Virus record (IMG/VR): IMGVR_UViG_3300035182_000347
Location: 5,433-69,432 of that record
From: a virus
DNA: 64,000 nt
Strand: one strand, 5' to 3'
Shown here piece by piece: positions 1,472-20,355 of this stretch. Under the pieces are notes generated by a model. It was not told the DNA's origin. It made no database searches and saw only the letters and a list, made by a program, of their open reading frames with translations. The position numbers and the translations under genes are program-made. The stretch's first letter is position 1. Every line of letters begins with the position of its first letter.

Positions 1472-1500
1472 CTCCAACTTAGGCTATAAAGGAGAAGTAC

Positions 1501-1734
1501 ATGGAACCAAAGATTGATATTGAACCAGACGCATGGGCAACGAAAGATATGTGCATAGGGCCGCATTTAGGGAATGTACGTTACGACAAATTACCTATTC
1601 AAAGTTTCAACCCGTTGCAATACACCCATGAAAAACTCTACTCAGAGAAAGCGGTAATTGGCTTGATGAAGGCCGCTTACTATGATGGCTACACGGAACG
1701 AGAGCAGGAATTAAGGGCGGTGCCGAACGCCTGA
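1501..1734 (+). CDS. hypothetical protein
   Basis: AAGGAG SD; C-terminus (VPNA*) runs into attC-like site at 1722. Confidence 0.65.
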   Translation: MEPKIDIEPDAWATKDMCIGPHLGNVRYDKLPIQSFNPLQYTHEKLYSEKAVIGLMKAAYYDGYTEREQELRAVPNA

Positions 1735-1785
1735 ATTAACCGGACGCCGCTTTAGCGGCGGTCCGAGTTGAATGAAATGTTAGAA
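1722..1785 (-). repeat. attC-like recombination site 1
   Basis: Minus strand reads TTCTAAC-ATTTC-ATTCAACTCGGACCGCCGCTAAAGCGGCGTCCGGTTAAT-TCAGGC-GTTCGGC, closely resembling the aadA-type attC as recalled; extrahelical G on + strand. Confidence 0.85.
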
Positions 1786-2026
1786 CTGACGACTGCACAC
1801 TGTTTTAAGGTGGCGTACCACCTGACATTCACGGATCGTATGCCGTGGAGAGTTCGATAAATGACCGGGGAATCCACGTTTACGGTCAGCCGAAATGCCA
1901 GAACGCGAGCCGCAAGGCAGCGCACCAAAACTGGCCGGTGCGGACGATGGCAGTGTGCAGCCATGAGTTCTAACGCGGGTTATCCGCCACCCATGGAAGC
2001 GCGGCAACACTGAAAAGGAAACAACG

Positions 2027-2389
2027 ATGCGCGAACTGAACGAACACAAGATTAACCCCGGCAACGACACGCTCAAGATTACCGTGCTGGACGAACCTGG
2101 GCACGGTGGCGCAAACCACGCCTACGATATTGAGGGCGGCGAGGCGGTGCCGACACACCTGCGCTTTCAAAACGGACCGATCAACGCGGACGGTAACGGC
2201 GTGAATGGCATTACCCATGAGGCGCTGCTCGTGGTGCTGTGCGACCGCCTGCGCGGGTTTCAGGCGGGGCCGTATGCCTGCAAGGCGAACGCTTGCGCGC
2301 TGACACACTTGGAAGAAGCGCAACACTGGTTGCAGCAGCGCACCATCGAGCGTATGCGGCGAGGCGTCGAAGGCACGCATACGGTTTAA
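2027..2389 (+). CDS. tad1: Tad1-like (Acb2/Tad1 family) anti-Thoeris/anti-CBASS nucleotide-signal sponge
   Basis: MREL...HxY...FQNGPI..GVNGIT.E.L..L.DRL..FQ.GP.AC..N..A.T.LEEA..WL..RT..R.RRGVEGT matches the recalled Tad1 pattern; AAGGA SD. Confidence 0.8.
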   Translation: MRELNEHKINPGNDTLKITVLDEPGHGGANHAYDIEGGEAVPTHLRFQNGPINADGNGVNGITHEALLVVLCDRLRGFQAGPYACKANACALTHLEEAQHWLQQRTIERMRRGVEGTHTV

Positions 2390-2447
2390 TTTTGTGGGCC
2401 GCAGATGGCCTTCTCTCTGCGTTTTTCGCAGCCTTTCGGCCAGCGGC

Positions 2448-2505
2448 GGCTAACGCCTGAGTTCAGGCGCGGCCGGAGGCTGTCACCTGGAACGACGGGT
2501 TGTGC
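2448..2505 (-). repeat. attC-like site 2
   Basis: + strand GGCTAAC-gcctga-GTTCAGG...CCTG(G)AAC-gacgg-GTTGTGC, 58 bp. Confidence 0.8.
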
Positions 2506-2532
2506 ATCTTGCGGTGATACGGAGAAAGAAGA

Positions 2533-3303
2533 ATGAACAGAATTGTTTGCCAGTTTTCCTGCGGCGCTGCCTCGGCGGTGGCGACTAAGTTGGCGCTTTC
2601 GCAGTACGGCGACCGCTGCGTGGTGCTGAATGCCTACATTGCAAACGAGCATGAGGACAACCGCCGCTTTGCCGCCGACTGCGAAAAGTGGTTTGGGCGT
2701 ACGATGACCGTACTGCGTGACGAGAAGTACGACGCGGACGCTATCACTGTTTTTGAGCGGGTCGGCTACATCAAGGGGCCGAAGGGCGCGGCATGTACCA
2801 CCAGGATAAAGCGGGGTTTGCTTCGTGCGTTTGCGCAACCCGGAGACGTGCTAGTGCTCGGCTACACGGCGGAGGAACAGTGGCGATTTGACGACTTTGA
2901 AGCCAACTGGCCCGACCTCCCCGTAGTGGCTCCTCTGATCGAGCGCGGACTGACCAAGGAAGACTGTAAGGCGCTTGTTGAGCGCGCAGGGATGGTGCTG
3001 CCGATGATGTACCGGATGGGCTACGACAACGCCAACTGTATTGGCTGCGTAAAGGGCGGGCTTGGGTACTTCCGCGCAATCCGCGATGACTTCCCCGATC
3101 AGTTCGAGCGGTTGGCGCAAGCGGAGGACAAGGTTGCCGAACTGCATGGAACGAACGCCTACATCCTGCGCCACCGATCCGGGCCGCTTAAAGGGCATAG
3201 GTTCCCGTTGCGCGAGTTACCACCGGGTCCAATTGTAAGAAACGAGGCGCTACCGTCATGCGGGTTGTTTTGCGATGCAGCAGAGCAGGAATACGCGGCA
3301 TGA
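2533..3303 (+). CDS. PAPS-reductase-like / adenine nucleotide alpha-hydrolase protein with Cys cluster
   Basis: N-terminal FSCGAASAVA loop, CTTRIK, NANCIGCVK, terminal CGLFC. Confidence 0.7.
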   Translation: MNRIVCQFSCGAASAVATKLALSQYGDRCVVLNAYIANEHEDNRRFAADCEKWFGRTMTVLRDEKYDADAITVFERVGYIKGPKGAACTTRIKRGLLRAFAQPGDVLVLGYTAEEQWRFDDFEANWPDLPVVAPLIERGLTKEDCKALVERAGMVLPMMYRMGYDNANCIGCVKGGLGYFRAIRDDFPDQFERLAQAEDKVAELHGTNAYILRHRSGPLKGHRFPLRELPPGPIVRNEALPSCGLFCDAAEQEYAA

Positions 3304-3310
3304 TTTTGAC

Positions 3311-3399
3311 GCACAACGCTGAGCTAACCGGGCGCGATGAACCGGACGGCTCGAAGTAAACCCGCATTCCGCGCGCTCCGGTTGAGCGCCGTGTTGGAC
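3311..3399 (-). repeat. attC-like site 3
   Basis: GCACAAC-gctga-GCTAACCGG...CCGGTT(G)AGC-gccgt-GTTGGAC. Confidence 0.8.
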
Positions 3400-3409
3400 G
3401 GAGGATGAT

Positions 3410-3691
3410 ATGGATAGACCAATTACATACGGTGAGCTATTCGCGCGCATGAGAATGCCTGCATCTGTTGAGTTCGATGATCCGCGCTGGTGGCGGCCAA
3501 TCGGTATGGAGATTGATCGGCTGCGCGCGGCATTGAAGCCATTTTCCGCACATCCGCAATTCCAAGCGCCAGACGACTGGCCAGTGACGGTAATTGACCG
3601 GAACGAACCGACCGGAGACCCAGTTGCAGGGGTAACCGCTGGAGATTTTCGACGCGCGGCAGAGGCCATGACGCCCAAGTCACCTGACTGA
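3410..3691 (+). CDS. hypothetical cassette protein
   Basis: GGAGG SD directly after attC-like site 3; stop lies inside site 4. Confidence 0.6.
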   Translation: MDRPITYGELFARMRMPASVEFDDPRWWRPIGMEIDRLRAALKPFSAHPQFQAPDDWPVTVIDRNEPTGDPVAGVTAGDFRRAAEAMTPKSPD

Positions 3692-3734
3692 CGCGGCCTT
3701 ATCGCGGCAGGTCAGGTGGACTTCCGGGTTATGC
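3666..3734 (-). repeat. attC-like site 4 (left core degenerate, GAC instead of AAC)
   Basis: gcccaa-GTCACCTGAC...GTCAGGTG(G)AC-ttccgg-GTTATGC; left arm shares ACGCCCAAGTCAC with site 7. Confidence 0.7.
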
Positions 3735-3758
3735 CGCGCGAATACTACAAAGAAAGGA

Positions 3759-4052
3759 ATGGGCATGAAGATTCAAGGTCCGGTGGAAGTGGAATTGAAA
3801 ATCAGCATCACAAACGAAGAACAACATGGAGTCGTAACTATCAGCATGGGGAAAGGCAGCTACCCAACAGAAGGAGAACTGCGCGAACGGGTAGTTCAGT
3901 TTGAAAATGAAGAAATGCCGACAGGATTCCGCTTGATGACCAAGCGCGAATGGTGGGACTCTGTTTGCCCTCCGTCCTACGACGAGGACGAGGATGGTGT
4001 GCGCAACAAGACGCGCTTTGCTGTTCCAGGTGGCGATGACTACGACGCATAA
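3759..4052 (+). CDS. hypothetical acidic cassette protein
   Basis: AAGGA SD; TAA stop lies within GCATAAC core of site 5. Confidence 0.7.
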   Translation: MGMKIQGPVEVELKISITNEEQHGVVTISMGKGSYPTEGELRERVVQFENEEMPTGFRLMTKREWWDSVCPPSYDEDEDGVRNKTRFAVPGGDDYDA

Positions 4053-4115
4053 CACTGAATGTGAGGCGACTGGCGTGGATTTATGCGGCAGGTCGACTCG
4101 ACCGTACTGTTACCA
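4047..4115 (-). repeat. attC-like site 5
   Basis: GCATAAC...GTGAGGCGAC...GTCGACTC(G)AC-cgtact-GTTACCA. Confidence 0.7.
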
Positions 4116-4126
4116 CGGAGAATGGA

Positions 4127-4402
4127 ATGGAACATATATTTAGCGACAAAATCGTTACAGCGAAGAAGCGCCATCACTGCGACGCAAGCGAACAGTGGCG
4201 ACGAGCTGGCTTCACCATTGCCGACTGCGAAACGGACGAGCAGCGGCTGATGGTTGCCGCTGCCGAGGTAGACAACTGGCGCATCTTGCCTGGGCAAGCC
4301 TACCGTAGGGTGATCGGAATTCACGAAGGCGGATTGAGCACCTACAGGGCGAGGCCGGGCATGGACGCAGTGTGCAGCGACCTTGATATATGGGACGAGT
4401 GA
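4127..4402 (+). CDS. hypothetical cassette protein (HxCD motif)
   Basis: GGAG SD; AKKRHHCD and ILPGQAYRR resemble small phage Zn-finger-like proteins. Confidence 0.65.
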   Translation: MEHIFSDKIVTAKKRHHCDASEQWRRAGFTIADCETDEQRLMVAAAEVDNWRILPGQAYRRVIGIHEGGLSTYRARPGMDAVCSDLDIWDE

Positions 4403-4406
4403 GATT

Positions 4407-4463
4407 GCCTAACGCCTGAATTCAGGGGCGGCGAAGCCGTCCCGCTGGATTGACGTGTTAGGG
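4407..4463 (-). repeat. attC-like site 6
   Basis: GCCTAAC-gcctga-ATTCAGGGGCGGCGAAGCCGTCCCGCTG(G)ATT-gacgt-GTTAGGG, 57 bp. Confidence 0.8.
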
Positions 4464-4482
4464 GCGGAAATTTGGAGAAGAA

Positions 4483-4989
4483 ATGGGATACGGAGCACAC
4501 GAAAAACCGAACGAAGGCGCGACCAATATTTGGCTCACACCACCGCGCATTATTGAAATGCTTGGGCCTTTTGACCTTGACCCATGCGCAGCACCGGAGC
4601 CGCGACCGTGGCCGACAGCACACGCGCACTATGCCGAGGCAGACGGTGATGGGCTGCAACGGGAATGGCATGGGGTTGTGTGGGTGAACCCGCCATACGG
4701 CGACAAGGCCGAGGCGTGGCTGCACAGGCTGGCTAGGCACGGAGAGGGCATCGCGCTGGTTTTCGCCAGGACGGAAACGGCATGGTTTCAGCGCGTAGCG
4801 CGGCACGGCTGGCTTTTGTTTTTCCCGTCAGGGCGGCTGACCTTTCACAAACCGAATGGAGAGCGCGGGGTCGGTAATGCAGGGGCACCGAGCGTTTTCC
4901 TTGCCATTGGCGAGGAAAGCAAACTGCGCCTGAGAAGCTGCGGGATGGAAGGGTTCTTCTGCGAGCCTGAGTTTTTCGCGACGCAATGA
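4483..4989 (+). CDS. phage DNA N6-adenine methyltransferase (Dam-like family)
   Basis: WLTP, FDLDPCA, DGL..W, WVNPPY, ARTET.WF, GRL.F motifs. Confidence 0.9.
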   Translation: MGYGAHEKPNEGATNIWLTPPRIIEMLGPFDLDPCAAPEPRPWPTAHAHYAEADGDGLQREWHGVVWVNPPYGDKAEAWLHRLARHGEGIALVFARTETAWFQRVARHGWLLFFPSGRLTFHKPNGERGVGNAGAPSVFLAIGEESKLRLRSCGMEGFFCEPEFFATQ

Positions 4990-5079
4990 CGCCCAACGCA
5001 GGATATACACCAAGTGACCAGTAACACCCGAAAACACAGAATATAGGACACCAGTAAGCAACAGAACCAGCAGCGAAGA

Positions 5080-5145
5080 ATGAACAATGAACTGATGTTT
5101 TCGAGCAAGACCGATATGTTGTCAACACCACAAGCGTTCTTTTGA
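5080..5145 (+). pseudogene. N-terminal remnant of a second phage Dam-type methylase
   Basis: Translates MNNELMFSSKTDMLSTPQAFF*, resembling the recalled FSSK.D.W.TPQ.FF start of phage Dam proteins. Confidence 0.6.
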
Positions 5146-5150
5146 CAGCA

Positions 5151-5205
5151 ATAAAAACATTTGATGAAGAATCTTCTTGTGTTACCGGAAACGGTGGTCT
5201 ATAGT
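5151..5205 (+). promoter_or_regulatory. sigma70-type early promoter with upstream repeated operator-like element
   Basis: TTGTGT(5177)-17 nt-TATAGT(5200); 28-bp upstream block shared with 8208-8235. Confidence 0.65.
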
Positions 5206-5234
5206 TACACCATCAACAACGCACGGAGCGCAAA

Positions 5235-5984
5235 ATGAAAGTCGAAATCAAAAGTCGTTTTACAGGCGAGGTTCAATTCGCACTTGAGTGCGAAGGGAAC
5301 ACTGTGGCCATTACGCTGGCCGAGGCCGTAAGGTTAGGCACCAACCTGTATGGCGCATACCTTAGCGGCGCGGACCTTAGCGGATCGTCACTGGGGGGCG
5401 CAAATCTTCACTGTGCGAACTTGATGGGCGCTAGCCTTATGGACGCGGACTTGATGTCCGCGGACCTCTATGGATCTGATCTCAGCAGTGCGTCCCTTGA
5501 GGACGCGAATCTCAATGGCGCGAACCTTAGGTCTGCGAATCTTTATGGGGCCTACATGAGGTCCGCGAAACTTCGCAATGCAAACCTTAGCAATACGAAC
5601 CTTATGGACGCGGACTTGATGTCCGCGGATTTGGTTGCCGCCAATTTGTACGGTGCGGACTTTGTCAGTGCGAACCTATCTTGGGTGGATTTGCAGGACG
5701 CAAACATTGATGGCGCGGACCTTAATGGCGCGATCCTTAAGGGTGCCAATCTTGATGGCGCGTCCATCGGGGACGCTGGTAAGCTGACTGGCGAAAGCCC
5801 GTATTTCACTGTTATCTTTGGAGTTAATGCGGAACGCATTGAGTCGTTTCGCACAGAGAAGGGGATTTTTATCCGCAGCGGGTCATTCTTTGGCACTGCG
5901 GCGGATTTCCGGGGCAACAACCCCGCCGGCGGAGTGTACCAGGCCGCCTTGGACCTGGTTGAAGCCCATTATCGGCTGGTCTGA
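5235..5984 (+). CDS. pentapeptide repeat protein
   Basis: Long run of A(D/N)Lxx repeats; IKSRFTG N-terminus and IRSGSFFGT C-terminus. Confidence 0.9.
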   Translation: MKVEIKSRFTGEVQFALECEGNTVAITLAEAVRLGTNLYGAYLSGADLSGSSLGGANLHCANLMGASLMDADLMSADLYGSDLSSASLEDANLNGANLRSANLYGAYMRSAKLRNANLSNTNLMDADLMSADLVAANLYGADFVSANLSWVDLQDANIDGADLNGAILKGANLDGASIGDAGKLTGESPYFTVIFGVNAERIESFRTEKGIFIRSGSFFGTAADFRGNNPAGGVYQAALDLVEAHYRLV

Positions 5985-6033
5985 AGATTTCCGGGACCGC
6001 GTTCTCGCGGCCGGTTTCAAGTTTGGATTGGAG

Positions 6034-6234
6034 ATGAGAGTGAAAACTTCAAAGTATAGGGTGGCGGCTCTGCGAAAGCGGGCCGCCGCGATTGGCCTGA
6101 AGCGCCGTGAAATCTATTCGCATGAGGATGACTGGCCAGCAATTAAAGCGCTGGCAGAATATCTTATAAAACGCAGAGAGAAGGCCGCGAAGGTGGCGGA
6201 TAACGCCAATTTAACCATTACCAATTTCACTTAG
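6034..6234 (+). CDS. small basic hypothetical protein
   Basis: RVAALRKRAAAIGLKRREIY; start uncertain (ATG 6034 or GTG 6040). Confidence 0.55.
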   Translation: MRVKTSKYRVAALRKRAAAIGLKRREIYSHEDDWPAIKALAEYLIKRREKAAKVADNANLTITNFT

Positions 6235-6242
6235 GATCAGAC

Positions 6243-6698
6243 ATGACCATCACGCTTGAGGCCATCAAGGCAGAGCAGAAACGCATTGCCGCGATGATTT
6301 CGGAGTTTGAGAAGCAACCCGCTGCATTGGCATTCCCGATCAGCATCCGATTTCCCGATCTTGCGGAGGGCGAAAAGTTTGTCGGCGTCATCATCAGCGC
6401 GGACGGTAGCCGCAAGCATGCGGTGATTCTGCTGCCGGGCGAAGCCGATATCGCCAACTGGAAAACGCAACACAAGTGGGCAGAGAGCATAGGCGGCGAA
6501 CTATTTGACCGTGTTGAAGGCGCTCTGCTGTTCGCCGCGATGAAGGATGAATTCAAGCCCGAATGGTATTGGACTTGCGAGAAGCACGAAGTCGACTCGG
6601 CCTATGCCTGGGATCAGGACTTCGGACACGGCTACCAGTACGGCCACGATACGAGCTACAAGTTCAGAGCCCGAGCAGTCCGCAGGGTTTCACTCTGA
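6243..6698 (+). CDS. DUF1566/C-type-lectin-fold protein
   Basis: WAESIGGEL, WYWT, AYAW.QDF..G.Q, RARAVRR C-terminus. Confidence 0.8.
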   Translation: MTITLEAIKAEQKRIAAMISEFEKQPAALAFPISIRFPDLAEGEKFVGVIISADGSRKHAVILLPGEADIANWKTQHKWAESIGGELFDRVEGALLFAAMKDEFKPEWYWTCEKHEVDSAYAWDQDFGHGYQYGHDTSYKFRARAVRRVSL

Positions 6699-6769
6699 AC
6701 ACCATCGAAGTCTCACTATTGACGTAACTTCCCCCGCCATAAAAGACGGGGTTCTAGGAGCAAAATCTG

Positions 6770-7198
6770 ATGAACAACTGGAACTTCACCGGAAACATCG
6801 GCAAGGATGCCGAAACGCGATTCATCCAAAGCGGCGAGGCTGTCGTTCAATTCTCGGTCGGTGTGAAATCTGGCTACGGCGACAAAGCCACAACCACATG
6901 GGCGCGTTGCACCATGTGGGGCAAGCGTGGAGAGTCTGTCGCGCAATACCTCACCAAAGGATCGCTTGTCGGAATCTCCGGCGAGGTCACGCTGCGCGAA
7001 TTCACCAACAAGGAAGGCAACAAGCAGACGACGCTGGAAGTGCGCGTGAATGATCTGACGCTTATGGGAGGCCGAAAGGACGGCGGTAGCTCACCAGATA
7101 ACGAGTCACACCAGTCAAGCGCTCTATCTAGGTCAAGGCCGCAGCCAGCAAGCGGCGGCAATGCGTTTGATGATCTAGATTCAGATATCCCGTTCTGA
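6770..7198 (+). CDS. ssb: single-stranded DNA-binding protein
   Basis: GNIGKDAE, YLTKGSLV.ISG, acidic DSDIPF tail. Confidence 0.95.
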   Translation: MNNWNFTGNIGKDAETRFIQSGEAVVQFSVGVKSGYGDKATTTWARCTMWGKRGESVAQYLTKGSLVGISGEVTLREFTNKEGNKQTTLEVRVNDLTLMGGRKDGGSSPDNESHQSSALSRSRPQPASGGNAFDDLDSDIPF

Positions 7199-7247
7199 CA
7201 ATTACCTCAATGCCTCAAAAACGCAGAGAGAAGGCCGCGAAGGTGGC

Positions 7248-7312
7248 GGCTAACGCCCAAGTCACAGGCGCGGCGGCATCATCGACGCGTCCTGTAGACT
7301 GACGTGTTATGC
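7248..7312 (-). repeat. attC-like site 7
   Basis: GGCTAAC-gcccaa-GTCACAGG...CCTGT(A)GAC-tgacgt-GTTATGC. Confidence 0.8.
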
Positions 7313-7324
7313 ATTCGGGGTGAT

Positions 7325-7690
7325 ATGCCATACCTAAACGAAGACGGGACGATAGACACATGGAAAGGCTACATACGCAAATGCGGACACTGCGGAGCGA
7401 TAGAAAAGGTATTTGATGAGGCCACAGACCAAAACGTAGGACGATATGAAGAAATCTACGCATTGGAAGCTACGATATGCAAATTGTTCAGTGGGACGCG
7501 CGGGCCGGGGTTGCCAAATGTTTTGTGCGTTGAGTGCATGACGAGGCTGATGCCAAACCTGCACAAGCTGAGGGATGCAATTGAACTAGATATTTTCGTA
7601 AATAGACTGAAAGGTGCAATAAATGAAAAACGAAAGCAAGGAACTAAAGACAACCGGACAACTACGGACGATGCTTGCGAATGCTGCTAA
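7325..7690 (+). CDS. hypothetical protein with two CxxC pairs
   Basis: CGHC and CVEC; starts 13 nt after site 7. Confidence 0.6.
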   Translation: MPYLNEDGTIDTWKGYIRKCGHCGAIEKVFDEATDQNVGRYEEIYALEATICKLFSGTRGPGLPNVLCVECMTRLMPNLHKLRDAIELDIFVNRLKGAINEKRKQGTKDNRTTTDDACECC

Positions 7691-7862
7691 AGGTGTACTC
7701 AACGGAGACTTGGACATCGAGCGTGCCACGGCGCTGCACAAGCTGGCGAAGAACATCAGCGAGAGCCTGTACAGCGAAACCAAGATAGCAATGTTCAGCC
7801 ATGAGATCGGCAGCGCCATTCCGAAGATGGGAGACCTACCGCTTGGCGGCAGCGATGAATAA
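7623..7862 (+). CDS. hypothetical phage protein
   Basis: 79 aa; TAA stop lies in GAATAAC cassette end. Confidence 0.65.
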   Translation: MKNESKELKTTGQLRTMLANAAKGVLNGDLDIERATALHKLAKNISESLYSETKIAMFSHEIGSAIPKMGDLPLGGSDE

Positions 7863-7875
7863 CGCAGGAAACGAA

Positions 7876-8184
7876 ATGACAACGCCTATCGCACAAGGTC
7901 CGGATGAAAATGTGGAGCAGGACGCCGCCCGTTACCGCTGGTTGCGTGACCGGATGGAGGTGCTCTACAAAGAAACGATGTCTGGCCGGGAACCCCGCGC
8001 CACGCTGGCTATGCGCATTGGGCATGAATTTCTGGATAGCAAAATGCGCCCGGCCGCTGGGTGGATGGCCACCCTATATTTCGACGAATGCCGAGAGAAG
8101 GTGGACGCTGCAATAGACGATGCCATGAAGATGGCTAACAACCAAGCTAAGTGTCCTGGCTGCAGTTTTCCCGGTCCCGCTTGA
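7876..8184 (+). CDS. hypothetical protein (DAARYRWLR motif, Ead/Ea22-like)
   Basis: DAARYRWLRD...DAAIDDAM is common in phage early genes; runs into site 8. Confidence 0.65.
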   Translation: MTTPIAQGPDENVEQDAARYRWLRDRMEVLYKETMSGREPRATLAMRIGHEFLDSKMRPAAGWMATLYFDECREKVDAAIDDAMKMANNQAKCPGCSFPGPA

Positions 8185-8198
8185 GCGCAGAGTTAGCC
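8133..8198 (-). repeat. attC-like site 8
   Basis: GGCTAAC-aaccaa-GCTAAG...CTT(G)AGC-gcaga-GTTAGCC; cores perfectly complementary. Confidence 0.75.
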
Positions 8199-8207
8199 GC
8201 GACATCC

Positions 8208-8261
8208 ATAAAAACATTTGAGGAAGAATCTTCTTTCGAATCTTTGAATTATACGTATAAT
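8208..8261 (+). promoter_or_regulatory. sigma70-type early promoter, second copy
   Basis: TATAAT at 8256-8261; upstream block 27/28 identical to 5151-5178. Confidence 0.65.
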
Positions 8262-8285
8262 TAAATCGTCAACAACGAACAAGGA

Positions 8286-8525
8286 ATGAAAATGACGTCA
8301 ATGTTCAAAACCCAAGAGCATCCAATGATGGTTGAGGCCACCGCTCATATTTTTACCTTGCTTAACGGTAAGGTTTATGAGTTTGTGAACATAGACGGAA
8401 CAGACCAATTTGCGTTGTCTGGATCGTCCAACTATTACGACGCCGCCCAGTTTGGGCGCGCCAAAGAAAATGCGATCTCCAAGGGGGCAGTGTTCACCGA
8501 ATCTCGCGGCTGGACCTTCAAGTAA
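8286..8525 (+). CDS. hypothetical protein
   Basis: AAGGA SD downstream of promoter. Confidence 0.6.
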   Translation: MKMTSMFKTQEHPMMVEATAHIFTLLNGKVYEFVNIDGTDQFALSGSSNYYDAAQFGRAKENAISKGAVFTESRGWTFK

Positions 8526-9198: not shown

Positions 9199-10016
9199 GT
9201 AAGGTGAACGCATCAGACGTTTCAACCGAAGTCGAGGCTGAAATCGGCCTTCCGGTGTTGGTCGACAACGCCGTGGATTTGGTATTTAGAGGACCGGACG
9301 GGGCCATCGATCAGGCCCTTGCTACAGCCGACCGCTCAGCGGCCATGAACGCAGGCGACCGTTCGAAGGCCACGAACATAGGCGTCCGCTCGGCTGCCGT
9401 GAACATGGGTGACCATTCGGTTGCCATTAACGCAGGCGACCGTTCGACGGCAATAAACACTGGAGACCACTCAGAGGCCATGAACATGGGCTACCAATCG
9501 TCGGCCATGAATATGGGAGAATTTTCTGCGGCCACGAACACGGGAGAACAATCTGTGGCCATGAACATTGGCCGCCACTCAGCGGCCATGAACACGGGCT
9601 ACTGGTCGACGGCCATGAACGCGGGCGAATATTCGGAGGCCACGAACACTGGCAGCTACTCGGCTGCCGTGAACACTGGCGACCAATCGGTTGCCATGAA
9701 CGCAGGCTACCGTTCGACATCCATGAACACGGGGGAATACTCAACGTCCAAGAACGAAGGCGACCAGTCGTTTGCCCTGAACACGGGCTACCACTCGGTA
9801 GCCGAGGTGATGGGCACCGGTTCGGTCGCGGCATCCCTTAGCGCCCAAGGGCGCGCCCGCGCTGCCGCTGGCGGCGCAATCGTCCTCTGCTACCGCGACG
9901 AGATTAGCGGTCGCCTAATCAATATCCGCGCCAGCATAGTTGGCGAAAATGGCGTCAAGCCGGACACCTGGTACGTTCTCGACGCCGCTGGCGGATTTAT
10001 CGAGGTTACCGAATGA
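9195..10016 (+). CDS. 11-aa repeat protein (NTGxxSxAxxx)
   Basis: Roughly 14 tandem 33-nt repeats; C-terminal VGENGVKPDTWY; AAGGAG SD. Confidence 0.8.
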   Translation: MSKVNASDVSTEVEAEIGLPVLVDNAVDLVFRGPDGAIDQALATADRSAAMNAGDRSKATNIGVRSAAVNMGDHSVAINAGDRSTAINTGDHSEAMNMGYQSSAMNMGEFSAATNTGEQSVAMNIGRHSAAMNTGYWSTAMNAGEYSEATNTGSYSAAVNTGDQSVAMNAGYRSTSMNTGEYSTSKNEGDQSFALNTGYHSVAEVMGTGSVAASLSAQGRARAAAGGAIVLCYRDEISGRLINIRASIVGENGVKPDTWYVLDAAGGFIEVTE

Positions 10017-10103
10017 AAACGAACTGCGGGCAGACGACGAAGGCAACGAGCAATGCCAGTCCTATCTGACAGCGGGCCTGATTGAATACGCGGAGGAAGA
10101 GGA

Positions 10104-10469
10104 ATGCCAGTTTCTGAACTGATTGACGATCTACGCGGCCGGATAAACCCGGTATACGCGTCCCAGCCCGGAACAGAAAGCCATGAGCGCAGGCTGTGTG
10201 CCGAGGCACTGGAGGCGCAGCGCGACAGAATCAACGAACTTGAAGGAGCGATAGGCCGCGGCTACCGAATGCTGCTATCTGAGCCTGACACGAAAGGCGC
10301 TCTATTCAAAACCGAGAACATCCTGCGGGAAGCGCTGGAGCTGGCAGCCAAAAACCTGATCTCCGTCAGAGGCCGGCACCATACCGAGCAGGCGTACAAG
10401 CTGCCGCATGAGGCGGTTGAGAAAGTAGGCACCCTGCCGGAGTCGCAACGTAATGCCAAATCGTCGTGA
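10104..10469 (+). CDS. hypothetical protein
   Basis: GAGG SD, 121 aa. Confidence 0.55.
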   Translation: MPVSELIDDLRGRINPVYASQPGTESHERRLCAEALEAQRDRINELEGAIGRGYRMLLSEPDTKGALFKTENILREALELAAKNLISVRGRHHTEQAYKLPHEAVEKVGTLPESQRNAKSS

Positions 10470-10484
10470 GGATACTGTAGCGCC
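10463..10484 (+). promoter_or_regulatory. putative late promoter (variant GTCGTGAG), leaderless
   Basis: GTCGTGAG-GA-TACTGT-6 nt-ATG(10485). Confidence 0.65.
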
Positions 10485-10988
10485 ATGCCAAAAATAGTTA
10501 GATTCGACAAGGATGAAGCCCTTACCGACTGGAAAACCGGGAAATATACGGTACGCGATCTTGCGTCTAAATATAAGGTTTCACCGGGCACAATCCATAA
10601 GCTCGTTGTCGGAGTAGACAAGTCACTAGCCCCTTTAATAAACAAAGCAGTTGAAATAAAACAAGAACTTACAAATTTTAATGAACGGGAGATAAACAGA
10701 TTTGAACAAGAAGTAAGCGAGCGTACAAAACACATTCAATTCTTCACCAGCGCTAACGCACTGATTGCCAAGACGGTCATCAATAAAGTGCAGGCGGATG
10801 GCGATGAAGCCAGCTATCAGGACTTGAATGCAGCGGCCAATGCCATCACCAAGGCCCAAGAGAATGTTCTGGGCAAGCAGCCGGATAGTGTGGTCAATGT
10901 TGGGGTGACGCAGCGGACGGTGATTCAGTCGGCAGATCGGGTGCGCGAGATTCGACAAAAGCTGATAAGGGACATCTGTGGCGAGTAG
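10485..10988 (+). CDS. terS: terminase small subunit
   Basis: N-terminal HTH (TVRDLASKYKVSPGTI); overlaps terL. Confidence 0.75.
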   Translation: MPKIVRFDKDEALTDWKTGKYTVRDLASKYKVSPGTIHKLVVGVDKSLAPLINKAVEIKQELTNFNEREINRFEQEVSERTKHIQFFTSANALIAKTVINKVQADGDEASYQDLNAAANAITKAQENVLGKQPDSVVNVGVTQRTVIQSADRVREIRQKLIRDICGE

Positions 10989-12534
10989 CCTTTCGGAAGA
11001 GGATGAGATTCTGCGGGTAATGCTGCTGGATGACTTCCAGCTATTCGTCGAGTATTTCTTCCGGGCGCAGTACGGCCGGCGCTTTGTGGTGGCCGAGCAT
11101 CATGCGCAGATTACTGAGGCATTGACGCGGGTGGCGGCCGGAGAGTGCAAGAGGCTGATTATCAATATCCCGCCTCGCGCCGGAAAGACTGAGATTGCCG
11201 TCAAGATGTTCGTCGCTTGGTGCCTGGCGCACAATCCGGCGGCGAAGTTCATCCACCTTTCGTACTCCGATGACCTAGCACTGGACAACTCCAGCTCGAT
11301 TCGGGACGTGGTGAAGTCTGCCGAGTATCAGAAGCTCTTTCCGATTGCGCTCAAGGCTGACTCTGACAGCAAAAAGAAGTGGCTGACCAATGAGGCGGGC
11401 GGCATGTACGCGACGGCGGCAGGGGGCGCGATTACCGGATTCGGAGCGGGATTGATGCACCGAATCAGGACGGGAACGGAATGCGCGGCGGATGGATTTG
11501 GCGGCGGAATTTTAATTGACGACGCCTTGAAGCCAGATGATGCGTACTCGGAAACCGTGCGCGGCCGTGTTAATAATCGCTTCAACAACACCATCGCCAG
11601 CCGGGTGAATAGCCCGGATACGCCGATTGTCGTGGTCATGCAGCGGCTGCACGAAAACGACCTGACCGGCTATCTACTGGCCGGTGGAAGTGGCGAGAAA
11701 TGGGAGCACCTGTGCATTCCGGCGATCAATTCGCATGGTGAGTCAATTTGGCCAGACAAGTGGTCGATTGAACGGCTGCGGCAGATGGAAGCGGCAGACC
11801 CTTATACCTTCGCCGGGCAGTACATGCAGGTGCCGTCGCCACTTGAGGGGGGATTATTCAAGCCTGACAACATCGCCATCATTCTGGTATTGCCGGTTGA
11901 GTCAATCGAATGGGTACGCGGTTGGGACTTCGCCAGCACCACGACGGGCGACTGGACGGCGGGCGTAAAGTTGGGCAGATTGCGCGAGGGCCGATTGATT
12001 ATCGGCGATGTGGTGCGCATTCGCGTGGGTCCGGACGAACGCGATGCCGCGCTACTACATACGGCGGCGCGAGATGGCTATGAGTGCAAGCAATCCATCC
12101 CCCAAGACCCTGGGCAAGCCGGCGTAACGCAGGTCAAGTACCTCTTGCGCCAACTGGCCGGGTACAGCGTCAAGTCAAGCCCGGAGACGGGTAACAAGGT
12201 GGTGCGCGCCGAGCCGGTAGCGAGTCAGGTCAATGTCGGCAACGTGATGATGCTCAAGGCCGAGTGGAATTCGGCGTTGATCAACGAAATGCGCATGTTC
12301 CCCAATGGTACATGGGACGATCAGGTCGACGGTCTGAGCCGGGCGTTCGGTCTGCTGATCGGGCGCAACCCGTCAGAGATATTCATCCCTGACACCAGCA
12401 TCAAGGATGTCATTGCGGCGGCTGGGACGTGTGGGCGGTGCGCGTCATTCGGTGATGGCATGTGTAAAGAGAACTTCGGACTACAGGTAGGCGCATCGGA
12501 TATTGGGTGCGGGATGTTCATTGCGGGGTGGTAG
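10978..12534 (+). CDS. terL: terminase large subunit
   Basis: LIINIPPRAGKT Walker A, ILIDD Walker B, VMQRLHE.D, RGWDFA and DDQVD nuclease motifs. Confidence 0.95.
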   Translation: MASSLSEEDEILRVMLLDDFQLFVEYFFRAQYGRRFVVAEHHAQITEALTRVAAGECKRLIINIPPRAGKTEIAVKMFVAWCLAHNPAAKFIHLSYSDDLALDNSSSIRDVVKSAEYQKLFPIALKADSDSKKKWLTNEAGGMYATAAGGAITGFGAGLMHRIRTGTECAADGFGGGILIDDALKPDDAYSETVRGRVNNRFNNTIASRVNSPDTPIVVVMQRLHENDLTGYLLAGGSGEKWEHLCIPAINSHGESIWPDKWSIERLRQMEAADPYTFAGQYMQVPSPLEGGLFKPDNIAIILVLPVESIEWVRGWDFASTTTGDWTAGVKLGRLREGRLIIGDVVRIRVGPDERDAALLHTAARDGYECKQSIPQDPGQAGVTQVKYLLRQLAGYSVKSSPETGNKVVRAEPVASQVNVGNVMMLKAEWNSALINEMRMFPNGTWDDQVDGLSRAFGLLIGRNPSEIFIPDTSIKDVIAAAGTCGRCASFGDGMCKENFGLQVGASDIGCGMFIAGW

Positions 12535-12540
12535 CAGATA

Positions 12541-12562
12541 GTCGTGACGCCACAATAGACGC
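12541..12562 (+). promoter_or_regulatory. putative late promoter, leaderless
   Basis: GTCGTGAC-GC-CACAAT-6 nt-ATG(12563). Confidence 0.8.
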
Positions 12563-14779
12563 ATGAGCTCAGACCTTACCCATTCAGTCGCCTTTAACCA
12601 TTCCGCGCCACAAGATGAGCGCACCTCTGCGCTTGCAGAGCTGCAGAAGGCGGCCATGCCAACACGCGTCATTTCGGCTGAGGTTGTTGCCAAGATGATT
12701 GAGATGGCTGATATGACCAAAGCCATCAGCCAGAATGTCGTCCCGTTCCCTGGCCCAAACCAAGGAAAGCCGGGTATGCAGTCGATTCGGCTGGATGATC
12801 GGCAGCTTGGCCTGCAAGGTGAGTATTGGGAAAAGCCGGCCGCGATGAGCTTTGATGCTCTGCGCGCCATGGTCGATCAGACGCCCGTCCTGAACGCTGT
12901 GGTGATGACGCGGATACGCCAGGTGCAGCGCTTCTGTCGCGTGCAGGAATCCGGCGAAGGCATGGGCTTCACCATCAGACATGTGGACAAAGACCATCAG
13001 ATCAGCGCTAGCGAAAAAGAATCCATAGGCCTACTGAACAAGTTCATGGCGAATTGCGGCTGGGAGTTCAATGCGCGCAATCGGCGCAAGTTGCGGCGCG
13101 ACAACTTCGGAAACATGATGGGCAAACTGGTGCGGGATTCGCTGGTGCTTGACTCCTGCGCCATCGAGACTGAGTTCAAGCGTAACCGCGATGCCGGCAT
13201 GGATGGTATGGCGGCCATTGATGGCTCAACCATCCGTCTGACGGCAGAAGGCGGCTACAGAGGCAATGAGGATATTTTCGCCGTACAGGTGATTCAGGGG
13301 GCCATTCGTACCGCCTACACCTACGACGACCTGATATACGATCCGCGCAATCCACGATCTGACATCCTGGTGGGCGGCTACGGCCTGGGTGAGACGGAAT
13401 TGCTGGTGCGCGTGGTCACTGGCTTCCTCAATGCCATGACGCACAACATCACAGGATTTGACCGGAACGCTATACCAAAAGGAGTCCTGCATCTGTCTGG
13501 AGACTACACGCAAGATGATCTGGTGGCCTTCAGGCGCTACTGGAACAGCATGGTCAAGGGCACGAATAGTCAGTGGTCGGTGCCGGTGCTCATCAGTAAG
13601 GATCAGGAAAGCAAGGCCAGTTTTGAGAAGTTTGGTGTGGATTACGACGAGATGCATTTCTCGAAGTGGATGACCTTCCTGGCCAGCTTGATATGTGCCA
13701 TCTACGGCATGAGTCCGGCTGAAATCAACTTCGATGCCTTCTCGGGCGGTAATTCATCGCCTCTTAGTGGCTCAGATACCGCCGAAAAGCTGGCCGACTC
13801 GAAAGACAAGGGCCTGCGGCCTCTGCTGAGCTACTTCGAGAATCTATTCACCGACTACGTAGCCAATGACTTCAGCGACAAGTACGTGTTCCGCTGGACC
13901 GGGCTGGATGACAAAGATGTCGAGACCAAGGAAAAGCGCGCCGGCTTGATTTTGACGCTGAACGAAATGCGCGCCCAGGAGGGGTATGACGCAATCGAAG
14001 GCGACCTGGGCGATGCGCCATTGAATCCATCGCTGATTGGCCCATGGCTGCAGATGCAGCAACAAGCCCAGCAACCGGATACCGGAACCCCGCCAGAAGA
14101 CGGGCAAGGCGGCGACGATCCGCCCGAAGGCTTTGGTGGTGGCGATGGTGGCGGCGACTTCGGCCAGAAACCGGATGGCGATGATGATCAAGCTCAGGAC
14201 GGCGCTCCAACCAATGAAGACAGCGAAGAAGAAGCCTTTGGCAAGGCCATCAAGCCGACCGGGAACCCCGGCGTTGGCCTTGATGATGATGTGTTCTTCG
14301 ACCACGACGAGCATGGCCCAACGTCCGGAAAGGTAGTAGCCGTCGGCAAGGACGGATTCACCGTCAATCATGAGCTTACCGGGAAGACCGGTGTGCTGTG
14401 GGACAAGTTCCTAGGCCACAAGAAGCGAGCCGAGCGCAGGCTGATCCCAGTCATGCAAGGCGAGGACGGCATGATTGCCCGCGATGCAGCCACCGGCAAG
14501 CGGACATTCCTTGCTGGCGAACTGCCAGACGACGGGCAAGACGAAGAGATTGTCGGCGAACACATGCAGAAGGCGATGCAGATCATGGCCAGCAGCCAGT
14601 CAGACAAGGTTGATGCCGTGGCGGCGCTGGTTGAACGCATGGCTGAACAGTCACCAGACATTCAGGGTTTGGTTGATGGCCTGGGCGCTGTGATACAGAA
14701 GGCCATGGCCGACTCCGCAAACCAGCACGCCGGGCAACTCTCCGCGCTGGCGATTGCGGTTGAAAAACTAGCTCAGTAA
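12563..14779 (+). CDS. portal protein with long C-terminal extension
   Basis: Follows terL; IDGSTIR, YGLGE.E, PKGVL, SKDKGLRPLL, LTLNEMR resemble Twort/K-type portals. Confidence 0.9.
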   Translation: MSSDLTHSVAFNHSAPQDERTSALAELQKAAMPTRVISAEVVAKMIEMADMTKAISQNVVPFPGPNQGKPGMQSIRLDDRQLGLQGEYWEKPAAMSFDALRAMVDQTPVLNAVVMTRIRQVQRFCRVQESGEGMGFTIRHVDKDHQISASEKESIGLLNKFMANCGWEFNARNRRKLRRDNFGNMMGKLVRDSLVLDSCAIETEFKRNRDAGMDGMAAIDGSTIRLTAEGGYRGNEDIFAVQVIQGAIRTAYTYDDLIYDPRNPRSDILVGGYGLGETELLVRVVTGFLNAMTHNITGFDRNAIPKGVLHLSGDYTQDDLVAFRRYWNSMVKGTNSQWSVPVLISKDQESKASFEKFGVDYDEMHFSKWMTFLASLICAIYGMSPAEINFDAFSGGNSSPLSGSDTAEKLADSKDKGLRPLLSYFENLFTDYVANDFSDKYVFRWTGLDDKDVETKEKRAGLILTLNEMRAQEGYDAIEGDLGDAPLNPSLIGPWLQMQQQAQQPDTGTPPEDGQGGDDPPEGFGGGDGGGDFGQKPDGDDDQAQDGAPTNEDSEEEAFGKAIKPTGNPGVGLDDDVFFDHDEHGPTSGKVVAVGKDGFTVNHELTGKTGVLWDKFLGHKKRAERRLIPVMQGEDGMIARDAATGKRTFLAGELPDDGQDEEIVGEHMQKAMQIMASSQSDKVDAVAALVERMAEQSPDIQGLVDGLGAVIQKAMADSANQHAGQLSALAIAVEKLAQ

Positions 14780-20150: not shown

Positions 20151-20355
20151 TGAGGTCGATCAAGCAAATGACAGGGCGCTGCGGGATAACGACTTATGCG
20201 TGAGTATGGCACGCGATGCGGCGGCGAGAATACCTGTGGGCGAGGCTGGTGATTGTGATACCTGCGGGTCTTGGAATGGACGCCTTGTTGGCGGCATGTG
20301 CTCCCCATGCCGAGATCGTTACTCACGAATGGAGGCTATCAATGGAAAACCGTAA
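20143..20355 (+). CDS. TraR/DksA-like C4 zinc-finger protein
   Basis: MADEVDQA (DxxDxA) plus CDTC...CSPC. Confidence 0.75.
   Translation: MADEVDQANDRALRDNDLCVSMARDAAARIPVGEAGDCDTCGSWNGRLVGGMCSPCRDRYSRMEAINGKP

Follow-up and report, generated by a model that had tools for sequence, protein, structure and literature searches.

Integrons are regarded as bacterial devices, in which the cut on the attC site's bottom strand makes captured genes face the promoter Pc. Most bacterial cassettes carry their gene on the top strand, upstream of attC, and are expressed from Pc; cassettes that have their own promoter or are reversed, for example those of the toxin-antitoxin (TA) type, occur in sedentary chromosomal integrons. 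Clusters of attC sites lacking integron-integrases (CALINs) are also known from phages: 17 of them were found in 10,705 phage genomes, and IntI1 recombined five of the six phage attCs tested, none of which is treated here (Qi, Rajabal, Ghaly, Tetu, and Gillings, 2023, PMC9892861). In this work we analyzed a window of 64,000 nucleotides (nt), which is the whole stretch of DNA studied and corresponds to bases 5433-69432 of the single 69,432-base virus record IMGVR_UViG_3300035182_000347, and we focus on the hairpins and small genes that alternate at positions 2448-4997. The reading that we consider very probable is that the early region of this phage consists of integrase-less cassette arrays (CALINs), with attCs of the class 1-type family, in which the recombinogenic bottom strand is also the coding strand. 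Phage and viral sites would then consistently break the rule stated above. Positions are those of the window unless they are given as genome positions.

The sequence has a GC content of 56%, and the record is 75% complete according to CheckV and has no end repeats. It comes from a tailed phage, since Pfam matched a large terminase, a portal, and a tail-sheath domain in the contig, all of whose credible genes lie on the plus (+) strand. A search for DNA similarity in INPHARED gave no close relative, as only the PAPS-reductase gene (70%) and the portal gene (73%) were matched, both by Pseudomonas phages. A CALIN is recognized by at least two clustered attCs with no intI nearby; here, 12 model matches and further sites defined by their boxes, about 16 attCs in this one phage, extend over some 12.3 kb (genome 1299-13630). 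The contig does not hold the intI, attI, and Pc of a complete integron beside the array: neither a recognizable attI nor Pc was found, and the tyrosine recombinase family PF00589 had no matches across the 69-kb contig, which is 75% complete. Because of this completeness, an integrase might lie off the contig.

The attC family and its bottom strand

Over the initial 13.6 kb of the contig, almost all gene junctions contain an imperfect hairpin of 56-122 nt, with a box RYYYAAC on its left (5' box) and a box GTTRRRY on its right (3' box). The four most alike copies in the phage were used as a seed pattern, which found 49 IMG/VR contigs, 48 of them plainly of the same family. From 43 distinct viral copies and five copies of this phage we obtained an alignment of 48 sequences (A1), whose consensus is GCCTAAC-GCCTG-AATT-CAG-NGG-stem-loop-stem-T-CCN-CTG-G-AAT-GACGG-GTTAGGC, and its 48 rows were used to build a covariance model (R2) with a hand-set structure of 17 pairs, which replaced the RNAalifold default of a first model (R1) that had only eight. 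AAC and GTT are invariant in all 48 rows. Pairing across the 17 pairs reached 83.9% of cells, compared with 75.8% in shuffles, and covariation 0.229, compared with 0.099, none of 500 shuffles being as high in either measure; 11 of the 17 pairs vary on both sides, and sliding the 3' partner by a single column lowers pairing from 83.9% to 41-49%. On the + strand, two columns of the 3' arm remain unpaired, column 58 (mostly G) and column 51 (T), six pairs apart and opposite the 5' AAC.

The family is closely related to attCs of known function. Over 58-59 of its 60 nt, the viral member L002 has 90-93% identity to the class 1 attCs of aadB, aac(6')-IIa, fosE, and catB8, and it matches at least 5000 plasmid records. 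Moreover, R2, although built only on phage copies, recognized the attC of aadA1 with 45 bits and that of aadB with 37.6 bits. Terminal R boxes, covarying arms with an L box and an unpaired central spacer, extrahelical bases, and kinship with proven attCs were therefore all found. Judged by these features, the hairpins between the genes at 2448-4997 appear to be real attC sites, and their family appears to be that of class 1 and of beta- and gammaproteobacterial chromosomal attCs.

Nivina et al. (2016, PMC5027507) described the properties that set the bottom strand apart: it shows 5'-AAC-3' in R', cut between A and C, carries the extrahelical bases on the arm opposite AAC (G16 and T23 in attCaadA7), folds more stably, is G-richer, and frequently has a GAA loop. 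The + reading folds better in 131 of 165 distinct sites and is the G-rich one in 142 of them. Linkage to known integrons gives the same orientation. In the plasmid locus L051, oriented as the L002 query, the attCs and intI1 lie on + and aadB, blaOXA-10, and aadA1 on minus (-), and a second plasmid locus (L052) has the same strand layout. An integron integrase scored above the TIGR02249 cut-off in 10 of the 13 bacterial genomes that hold this attC family; R2 matches were found at seven of 11 chromosomal intI loci, in all seven on the strand of intI and at its 5' (start-codon) side, and a provirus record (L044) shows the same layout. The exception is L023, where two attCs lie on the strand of intI but past its stop. 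This prophage-like IMG/VR contig (portal, tail fibre, phage integrase) carries at 9243-12911 a 454-bit integron integrase followed by five small open reading frames (ORFs) and the two attCs, all on one strand, so that its array is 3' of intI, unlike the other nine intI-linked arrays. By structure and homology, then, + appears to be the attC bottom strand. The preliminary description had placed the bottom strand on + because of an unpaired G, and both the G and T bulges opposite AAC and the homology of intI-linked sites bear this out.

At E<0.05, R2 gave 12 matches in the 69,432-base contig, all on +, of which five are training rows and seven are not; the best match on the minus strand had an E of 0.35. 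Five of the 12 lie upstream of the window, at genome 1299, 1671, 2672, 3336, and 4425. We lettered the window sites I, J, K, L, M, N, P, and R, and use O for the lone box that ends the array; of the sites in the focal region, J, K, M, and N have the invariant AAC and GTT. All are on +. attC J (GGCTAAC ... GTTGTGC, 2448-2505) is a training row with 61.1 bits (E 2.8e-15). attC K spans 89 nt (3311-3399; R2 match 3314-3396; 18.1 bits, E 0.0077; not a training row), and its 3' arm folds as CGCGC-T-CCGGTT-G-AGC GCCGT GTTGGAC, with the bulged T and G separated by six pairs. attC L (3666-3734; 28.4 bits, E 7.8e-06; not a training row) has a degenerate 5' box, with GAC for AAC. The attC-like site M (GCATAAC ... 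GTTACCA, 4047-4115) scored weakly (7.9 bits, E 6.8) and was called from its boxes and from a metagenome joint at its AAC. attC N (GCCTAAC ... GTTAGGG, 4407-4463), a training row with 52.7 bits, has a 3' arm that folds as CCG-T-CCC-G-CTGGATT. On the right, the array ends with box O, a lone 5' box GCCCAAC at 4991-4997 that is not followed by a hairpin; provided that + is the bottom strand, an attI-like or secondary site would be expected here. Outside the focal region are attC I (1722-1785; 46.9 bits, E 3.5e-11; training row) at the end of the ORF 1501-1734, attC P (7248-7312; 44 bits; training row), and attC R (8133-8198; 15.8 bits, E 0.035; not a training row) at the end of the ORF 7876-8184.

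Other elements of these arrays are less regular. A collapsed site at 1968-1985 (+), TTCTAAC-GCGG-GTTATCC, has a 5' and a 3' box without a hairpin body, and its 5' box is complementary at seven of seven positions to the 3' box of attC I. The 190-nt unit between the two (1779-1974) has no credible ORF and is edged by a 24-nt inverted repeat (88%) that includes GTTAGAA and TTCTAAC, the 7/7 complementary pair; it may be a gene-less cassette or a small-RNA cassette. A second collapsed site resembling the first, CTCTAAC-GAAG-GTTAGGC, lies between two small genes at genome 4806-4826 (in L050). Three copies of one attC (genome 3336-3391 and 4425-4480, both in L050, and window 4407-4463) are nearly identical in their 3' half (GCGAAGCCGTCCCGCTGGATTGA..GTTAG), while their 5' arms have drifted, and the gene upstream of the copy at genome 4425 continues across the hairpin and has its stop codon in the 3' arm. 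A repeat of roughly 40 nt (AAACGCAGAGAGAAGGCCGCGAAGGTGGCGG-A/C-TAAC), with copies at 6163-6206 and 7216-7254, forms the ends of two different genes, running in the second case into attC P at 7248 and in the first into a hairpin-less lone box GGATAAC at 6200-6206; a perfect 19-nt inverted copy of it is found at 2407-2425, just before attC J. Finally, an AT-rich motif (AAAAACATTTGA-T/G-GAAGAATCTTCTT) is common to 5151-5190 and 8207-8250, after box O and attC R, respectively, and metagenome contigs contain joints from 8197 to 5151 (runs X1 and X4) and from 8186 to 5151 (run X3). This motif may be a phage-specific promoter or a conserved module of array ends.

Cassette genes and their orientation

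As the GC3 strand test failed at 56% GC, we assigned genes to strands with a codon model trained on 98 ORFs of at least 300 amino acids (aa). All 12 small + ORFs tested scored between +10 and +41, and all 12 overlapping minus ORFs between -7 and -30. The genes of the focal region and its left border are as follows, all on +. Upstream of attC J is a 120-aa Acb2/Tad1-hairpin-like gene (2027-2389; weak Pfam match, phrog_2428; codon score +18.9), which is 89% identical over 427 nt to a cassette flanked by two attCs in another viral contig (L007), the homology starting at 1976. The PAPS-reductase-like gene (2533-3303; 256 aa; phrog_424, E 7e-48; +41.5) is enclosed by boxes that are complementary at seven of seven positions (GTTGTGC and GCACAAC). 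Next come a 93-aa gene (3410-3691; +10.3), which had no Pfam or PHROG match and has its stop inside the 5' arm of attC L, and a 95-aa gene of no family (3765-4052; +19.9), whose TAA stop is inside the box and whose flanking boxes, GTTATGC and GCATAAC, are again 7/7 complementary. A 91-aa gene (4127-4402; phrog_13613, E 1.4e-19; +10.7) and a Dam-type N6-adenine DNA methyltransferase of 168 aa (4483-4989; PF05869 with 37.4 bits, over the cut-off; phrog_111) complete the region, and a pentapeptide-repeat protein is also among the family matches in + frames. On the evidence of the codon model and of the Pfam and PHROG matches, the cassette genes appear to be on +, as the preliminary description had claimed. 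Given that + is also the attC bottom strand, the polarity of these cassettes would be reversed.

The earlier proposal that the Shine-Dalgarno (SD) motif directly follows GTT and that the stop falls at or in AAC was roughly borne out. Starts in the window are 10-31 nt past the GTT box, roughly as stated. A stop within the box was found only at 4050-4052 (GCA-TAA-C), and one within an attC arm at 3689-3691; the remaining stops are 1-10 nt before the box (3303, 4402, and 4989) or 58 nt before it (2389). Among viral arrays in general, 34 of 138 upstream genes stop at the TAA in the 5' box and 47 more at a TGA or TAG ten bases in, and the median start is 25 nt beyond the 3' box. That each hairpin would stand in the mRNA 5' of an SD motif, as had also been suggested, follows from this geometry.

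To compare gene and attC orientation more widely, as the preliminary description had suggested, we called on each side of an attC the strand of the best-scoring ORF, "same" denoting agreement with the bottom-strand reading. R2, at E<=0.01, gave 160 attCs in 48 viral (IMG/VR) loci, and their 320 flanks were 288 same, 12 opposite, and 20 without a call. The phage's own genome had 24 of 24 calls same. Where a locus has attCs on both strands, the genes turn along with them (7, 5, and 15 same calls in L028, L042, and L047). The phage and viral loci thus depart from the canonical arrangement, in which a gene is encoded by the top strand and lies upstream of its attC, and within this attC family viral contigs have the same-strand layout as a rule. 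These contigs are from phages, as nine of the 10 large ORFs beside the viral arrays match families of terminases, primases, polymerases, tail proteins, RecE, or integrases; of the viral records, nine reach a completeness of 90% or more and four carry terminal repeats, with genome sizes from about 37 to 76 kb. They are not related to our phage, whose terminase family (Terminase_6C) was found in none of the 48 viral records, and intI was found in two of them. No T7-type RNA polymerase was found in the 48 records, in a search that matched no control genome either.

Bacterial arrays were surveyed with the same pattern in 185,579 species genomes, which gave 93 stretches, many of them by chance; R2 kept 92 matches among the 80 genome loci listed and two plasmid controls. 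Arrays of Nitrosomonas (11:1), Sulfuritalea (10:2), Pseudoxanthomonas (5:0), and Rhodanobacter (5:0, intI alongside) scored opposite, as did L074 (5:1), the loci concerned being L077 (11:1), L084 (10:2), L057 (5:0), L070 (5:0), and L074, and both class 1 controls were also opposite, each with 3:0. Some arrays of the genome set scored same, namely L113 (23:0), L097 (7:0), L131, L062, and L056, and L059, L082, and L086 had mixed calls. L113 is a 19.8-kb contig of a Propionivibrio metagenome-assembled genome (MAG) with twelve attCs, 23 of 23 flanks same, and it is a different contig from that of the intI; it may represent a prophage or a phage contig that was binned with the MAG.

Reversed cassettes also occur next to bacterial integrases. 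In a 540-kb Rhodocyclaceae MAG contig (L159), seven attCs are directly upstream of a 450-bit intI, and every ORF scoring more than 5 is on the same strand as the attC reading, several of them as overlapping pairs of 70-140 aa. In an Ottowia integron (L059/L154), the two cassettes nearest intI are same-strand and the next ones canonical. The protein of the first Ottowia cassette is identical (131/131 aa) to that of the viral contig L013 and 99% identical to those of L019 and L039, the last of which carries terminase, primase, RecT, and RusA. This near-identity suggests that reversed cassettes are exchanged between phages and bacterial integrons without losing their polarity. The view, put forward in the preliminary description, of a distinct phage-adapted cassette class can therefore be kept for the cargo, which looks phage-adapted, but the class is not confined to phages, as L159 and L059 show beside intI.

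Assembly, mobility, and expression of the cassettes

Each integron cassette supplies the outer letters of both boxes around its gene, and the two boxes of one hairpin derive from neighboring cassettes. Gene-flanking boxes in our set are complementary at 3.29 of the four outer positions, with 60 of 103 pairs perfect. Hairpin-flanking boxes agree at 2.12 of four (n=156), and random pairs at 2.13 (sd 0.10, maximum 2.46 in 2000 draws). Such complementarity is what integrase-made cassettes would be expected to leave as a signature, and it argues for assembly by the integron reaction, since short-homology exchange within the arms would not yield it. The cassette on + would accordingly read C-hairpin-GTTRRRY-SD-gene-RYYYAA, with the hairpin before the gene and the crossover between AA and C in the 5' box. 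As the contig holds no integrase, a host integron integrase would carry out the exchange.

When contigs are compared, their homology breaks at the boxes. High-scoring segment pairs (HSPs) between contigs are limited at the 5' box by 24 starts and 15 ends and at the 3' box by eight starts and six ends, reciprocal hits being counted. One gene is common to four contigs at about 95% identity and lies between the boxes GTTAGGC and GCCTAAC; the hairpin bodies upstream of it are of three different kinds, and downstream the contigs have none in common. The viral contig L014 is 95% identical to our phage over the first 1 kb, and its cassette region is different and much shorter. As regards flank linkage, strict global-identity thresholds left almost no informative pairs, and the comparison was redone with BLAST ends and looser thresholds; hairpin bodies at least 90% identical between loci then kept the right flank in six pairs and the left flank in none. 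We also compared contigs of four metagenome runs with window 1500-8500 at 90% likeness, parts of which were uncovered in X3 and X4. A joint from 4050 to 4995 shares exactly AAC and occurs in two runs, where its shorter side has 42 and 33 letters; the two cassettes from M to the Dam gene are missing from this form. Weaker joints, with short sides below 30 letters, link 3318 to 4995 and 2465 to 4409. All three involve 5' boxes, among them the lone box at the end of the array, which is the expected place of the cut if + is the bottom strand. At the level of sequence comparison, these data show that cassette content differs between phages and within natural populations and that the differences appear to end at boxes.

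Regarding cargo, the viral loci have 175 same-strand cassette ORFs, of which 150 were scanned. Pfam matches included at least 11 DNA methyltransferases (five N6_N4, three Dam, two C5, and one D12), Mom (two), dATP/dGTP pyrophosphohydrolase (two), and Lar, and 111 PHROG families matched viral same-strand cassette ORFs. In the head-gene region of the phage, at 20216-22411, is a 731-aa protein with a C-terminal zeta-toxin-like kinase domain.

In the 5.4 kb upstream of the window, three near-consensus sigma-70 sites of 12/12, 11/12 (with TG), and 10/12 lie 17-26 nt after the attCs at genome 1741, 5157, and 3392. The promoter scan gave no consensus-like sigma-70 site within 2448-4997, so the genes of this region would depend on the promoter at genome 5174. 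Transcription may thus come from phage promoters located directly behind some attCs and continue through the hairpins. The hairpins were considered as Rho-independent terminators and the idea was dropped, as they have no T tract: the terminator scan found attCs without T runs after them and terminator-like sites at the level of shuffles. REP-like elements or phage promoter stem-loops were likewise dropped, box complementarity and the identity with class 1 attCs being against them. In a host integron, a phage-type cassette would logically be silent from Pc: inserted at attI it would face into Pc, and a canonical cassette entering the phage array would come to lie antisense. Reversed polarity may in this manner keep the phage pool apart from the bacterial pool in expression, and it may also place the foldable strand where it is more often single-stranded.

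Alternative explanations and relation to known integrons

Several observations weigh against reading the array as integrase-less cassettes with coding bottom strands, or limit what it explains. The viral survey was seeded from one attC family and may sample one cassette lineage; some short IMG/VR contigs may be pieces of bacterial integrons, L013 being identical to the Ottowia cassette. Within the window, attC L has GAC for AAC and site M scores weakly in R2. Fourteen of the 53 homology ends are at the 3' box, which a single crossover between AA and C does not foresee, and six of 16 gene-level comparisons share the gene alone, with different hairpin bodies on both sides. The 6:0 linkage to the right flank amounts to some two or three independent events, and the hairpin body is a poor marker of a cassette, given that 140 of 152 near-identical body pairs share neither flank. 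As for the metagenome joints, all but one have a short side of fewer than 30 letters, and at 90% likeness other organisms may contribute. To judge from the 3'-box ends and gene-only blocks, the one-cut picture is incomplete, and it may be supplemented by infrequent recombination of the top strand or by exchange in the conserved arms.

An improbable alternative is that the hairpins only resemble attC, being elements of RNA or transcription, or linkers through which phage recombinases use short homology, and that no integron integrase acts on them. In its favor, the arms show conservation over some 17-19 nt, which could allow single-strand annealing, RecT or RecE genes are present in L039 and L020, the gene-only blocks between both boxes fit crossover in either conserved arm, and the + RNA folds more stably in 130 of 165 sites. 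However, circular cassettes, and not homologous exchange, give outer box letters that are complementary across genes and random across hairpins; in addition, one member of the family shares 90-93% identity with functional class 1 attCs, the same cassette stands first beside intI in a bacterium, the clean joint shares exactly AAC, and other phage attCs are recombined by IntI1 in five of six cases (Qi et al., 2023, PMC9892861). Highly improbable, too, is recombination of the minus (top) strand in the phage, with cassettes that are functionally canonical despite the position of their bulges, even though the homology ends at the GTT box, where the Tad1-like cassette common with L007 also begins, point that way and some attCs, including attCaadA7, allow top-strand recombination at a low rate (Nivina et al., 2016, PMC5027507). 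Against it are the bulges opposite AAC on +, the stability and G skew that favor +, the array end in a lone AAC box on + rather than GTT and the joints that use this box, the hairpin bodies that follow the right flank, and an orientation to intI that is fixed in every linked array. We consider ordinary cassettes whose true genes lie on the minus strand extremely improbable: minus ORFs of 94-154 aa do overlap every + gene, but the codon model scores all 12 tested minus ORFs negative and all 12 + ORFs positive, family matches are in + frames, viral same-strand cassette ORFs match 111 PHROG families, and SD motifs precede the + starts.

If the polarity is indeed reversed, its meaning is a separate matter, on which we can be only tentative. 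The mirror-image layout suggests that phages keep a cassette pool of their own. A possible interpretation is that of a mirror-image integron economy, in which phages use a host IntI (rarely their own) and the attC family of their hosts to trade counter-defence cassettes among unrelated phages, with the polarity being adaptive. Insulation would be one advantage: defence or toxin cassettes of the host would be antisense, and harmless, in a phage array, and phage cassettes would be silent at a host attI. Exchange would be another, as the bottom strand would be on the non-template strand, and perhaps the lagging-template strand, of a heavily transcribed early operon, which could speed up the reaction. 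Rather unlikely, in our opinion, is a founder effect alone, whereby one ancestral reversed pool entered phages, exchange between attCs preserved its polarity, and the polarity has no function. All 48 viral loci do derive from one family-specific pattern, perhaps one lineage, and the reversed cassettes beside bacterial intI (L159 and L059) would be a ready source. On the other hand, the phages are unlike one another (nine of 10 large ORFs match different phage families, 0/48 share the window's terminase, and genomes range from about 37 to 76 kb), the rule is kept in three loci with blocks in both directions, and a canonical cassette could as easily have been inserted in the expressed direction, yet only 12 of 300 flank calls are opposite.

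Should the reading of integron-assembled cassettes with reversed polarity hold, it would explain by a concrete mechanism how early accessory regions of phages become mosaic, and it would point to a second cassette pool, on the phage side, in which methyltransferases and other counter-defence genes abound. It would also imply a route of exchange with bacterial integrons, given the near-identical cassette in phage and beside the Ottowia intI. On a practical level, tools that orient genes by attC would put the phage genes on the wrong strand, and viral classifiers and integron finders would each claim the same contigs. Which strand of phage DNA IntI chooses, how transcription influences attC folding, and whether the SOS response drives cassette exchange during infection become testable questions.

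Phage CALINs are known already (Qi et al., 2023, PMC9892861), and their reversed polarity is apparently unreported, as we found no paper on it. The literature on phage CALINs that we searched gave no statement of cassettes reversed relative to attC; the supplementary tables of Qi et al. might show orientations. As far as the text of that study describes them, its CALINs are integrase-less attC clusters, of virulent as well as temperate phages, with orphan DNA methyltransferases, as here. The same text calls co-oriented CALINs typical of bacterial arrays, whereas here reversal is the rule. TA cassettes are known to be expressed apart from Pc (PMC11023631), and the same-strand overlapping ORF pairs of L159 and L059 (70-140 aa) look like such TA pairs, which in sedentary integrons are not read from Pc; however, reversed cassettes are a minority in bacterial integrons, and in phage arrays they make up nearly all, mostly without a promoter of their own. 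In an experimentally inverted Vibrio cholerae superintegron (Richard et al.), the bottom strand is more often single-stranded and excision rises sharply (PMC11023631). There, as described, the whole array was turned with respect to replication and the polarity of gene and attC was kept, whereas in the phage this polarity itself is reversed; a similar gain in single-strandedness is a possible pay-off of the phage layout. Cassettes have also been reported to insert at non-classical genomic sites, attG (bioRxiv 10.1101/2022.09.11.507474). Such insertion would explain how cassettes enter without attI, and the lone AAC boxes at 4991-4997 and 6200-6206 look like junctions of this kind.

With classical integrons (class 1 and those of Rhodanobacter, Nitrosomonas, and Sulfuritalea), the phage array has in common the attC family, with AAC/GTT in the R boxes, an unpaired spacer of 5 nt, and an L box. 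The G and T bulges six pairs apart, and in many sites a loop of the GAA type, are likewise those of classical attCs, and so are the complementary boxes around each gene and the tight packing of single small genes in arrays. Unlike classical integrons, the phage carries its genes on the bottom strand, with the hairpin before the gene and promoters inside the arrays.

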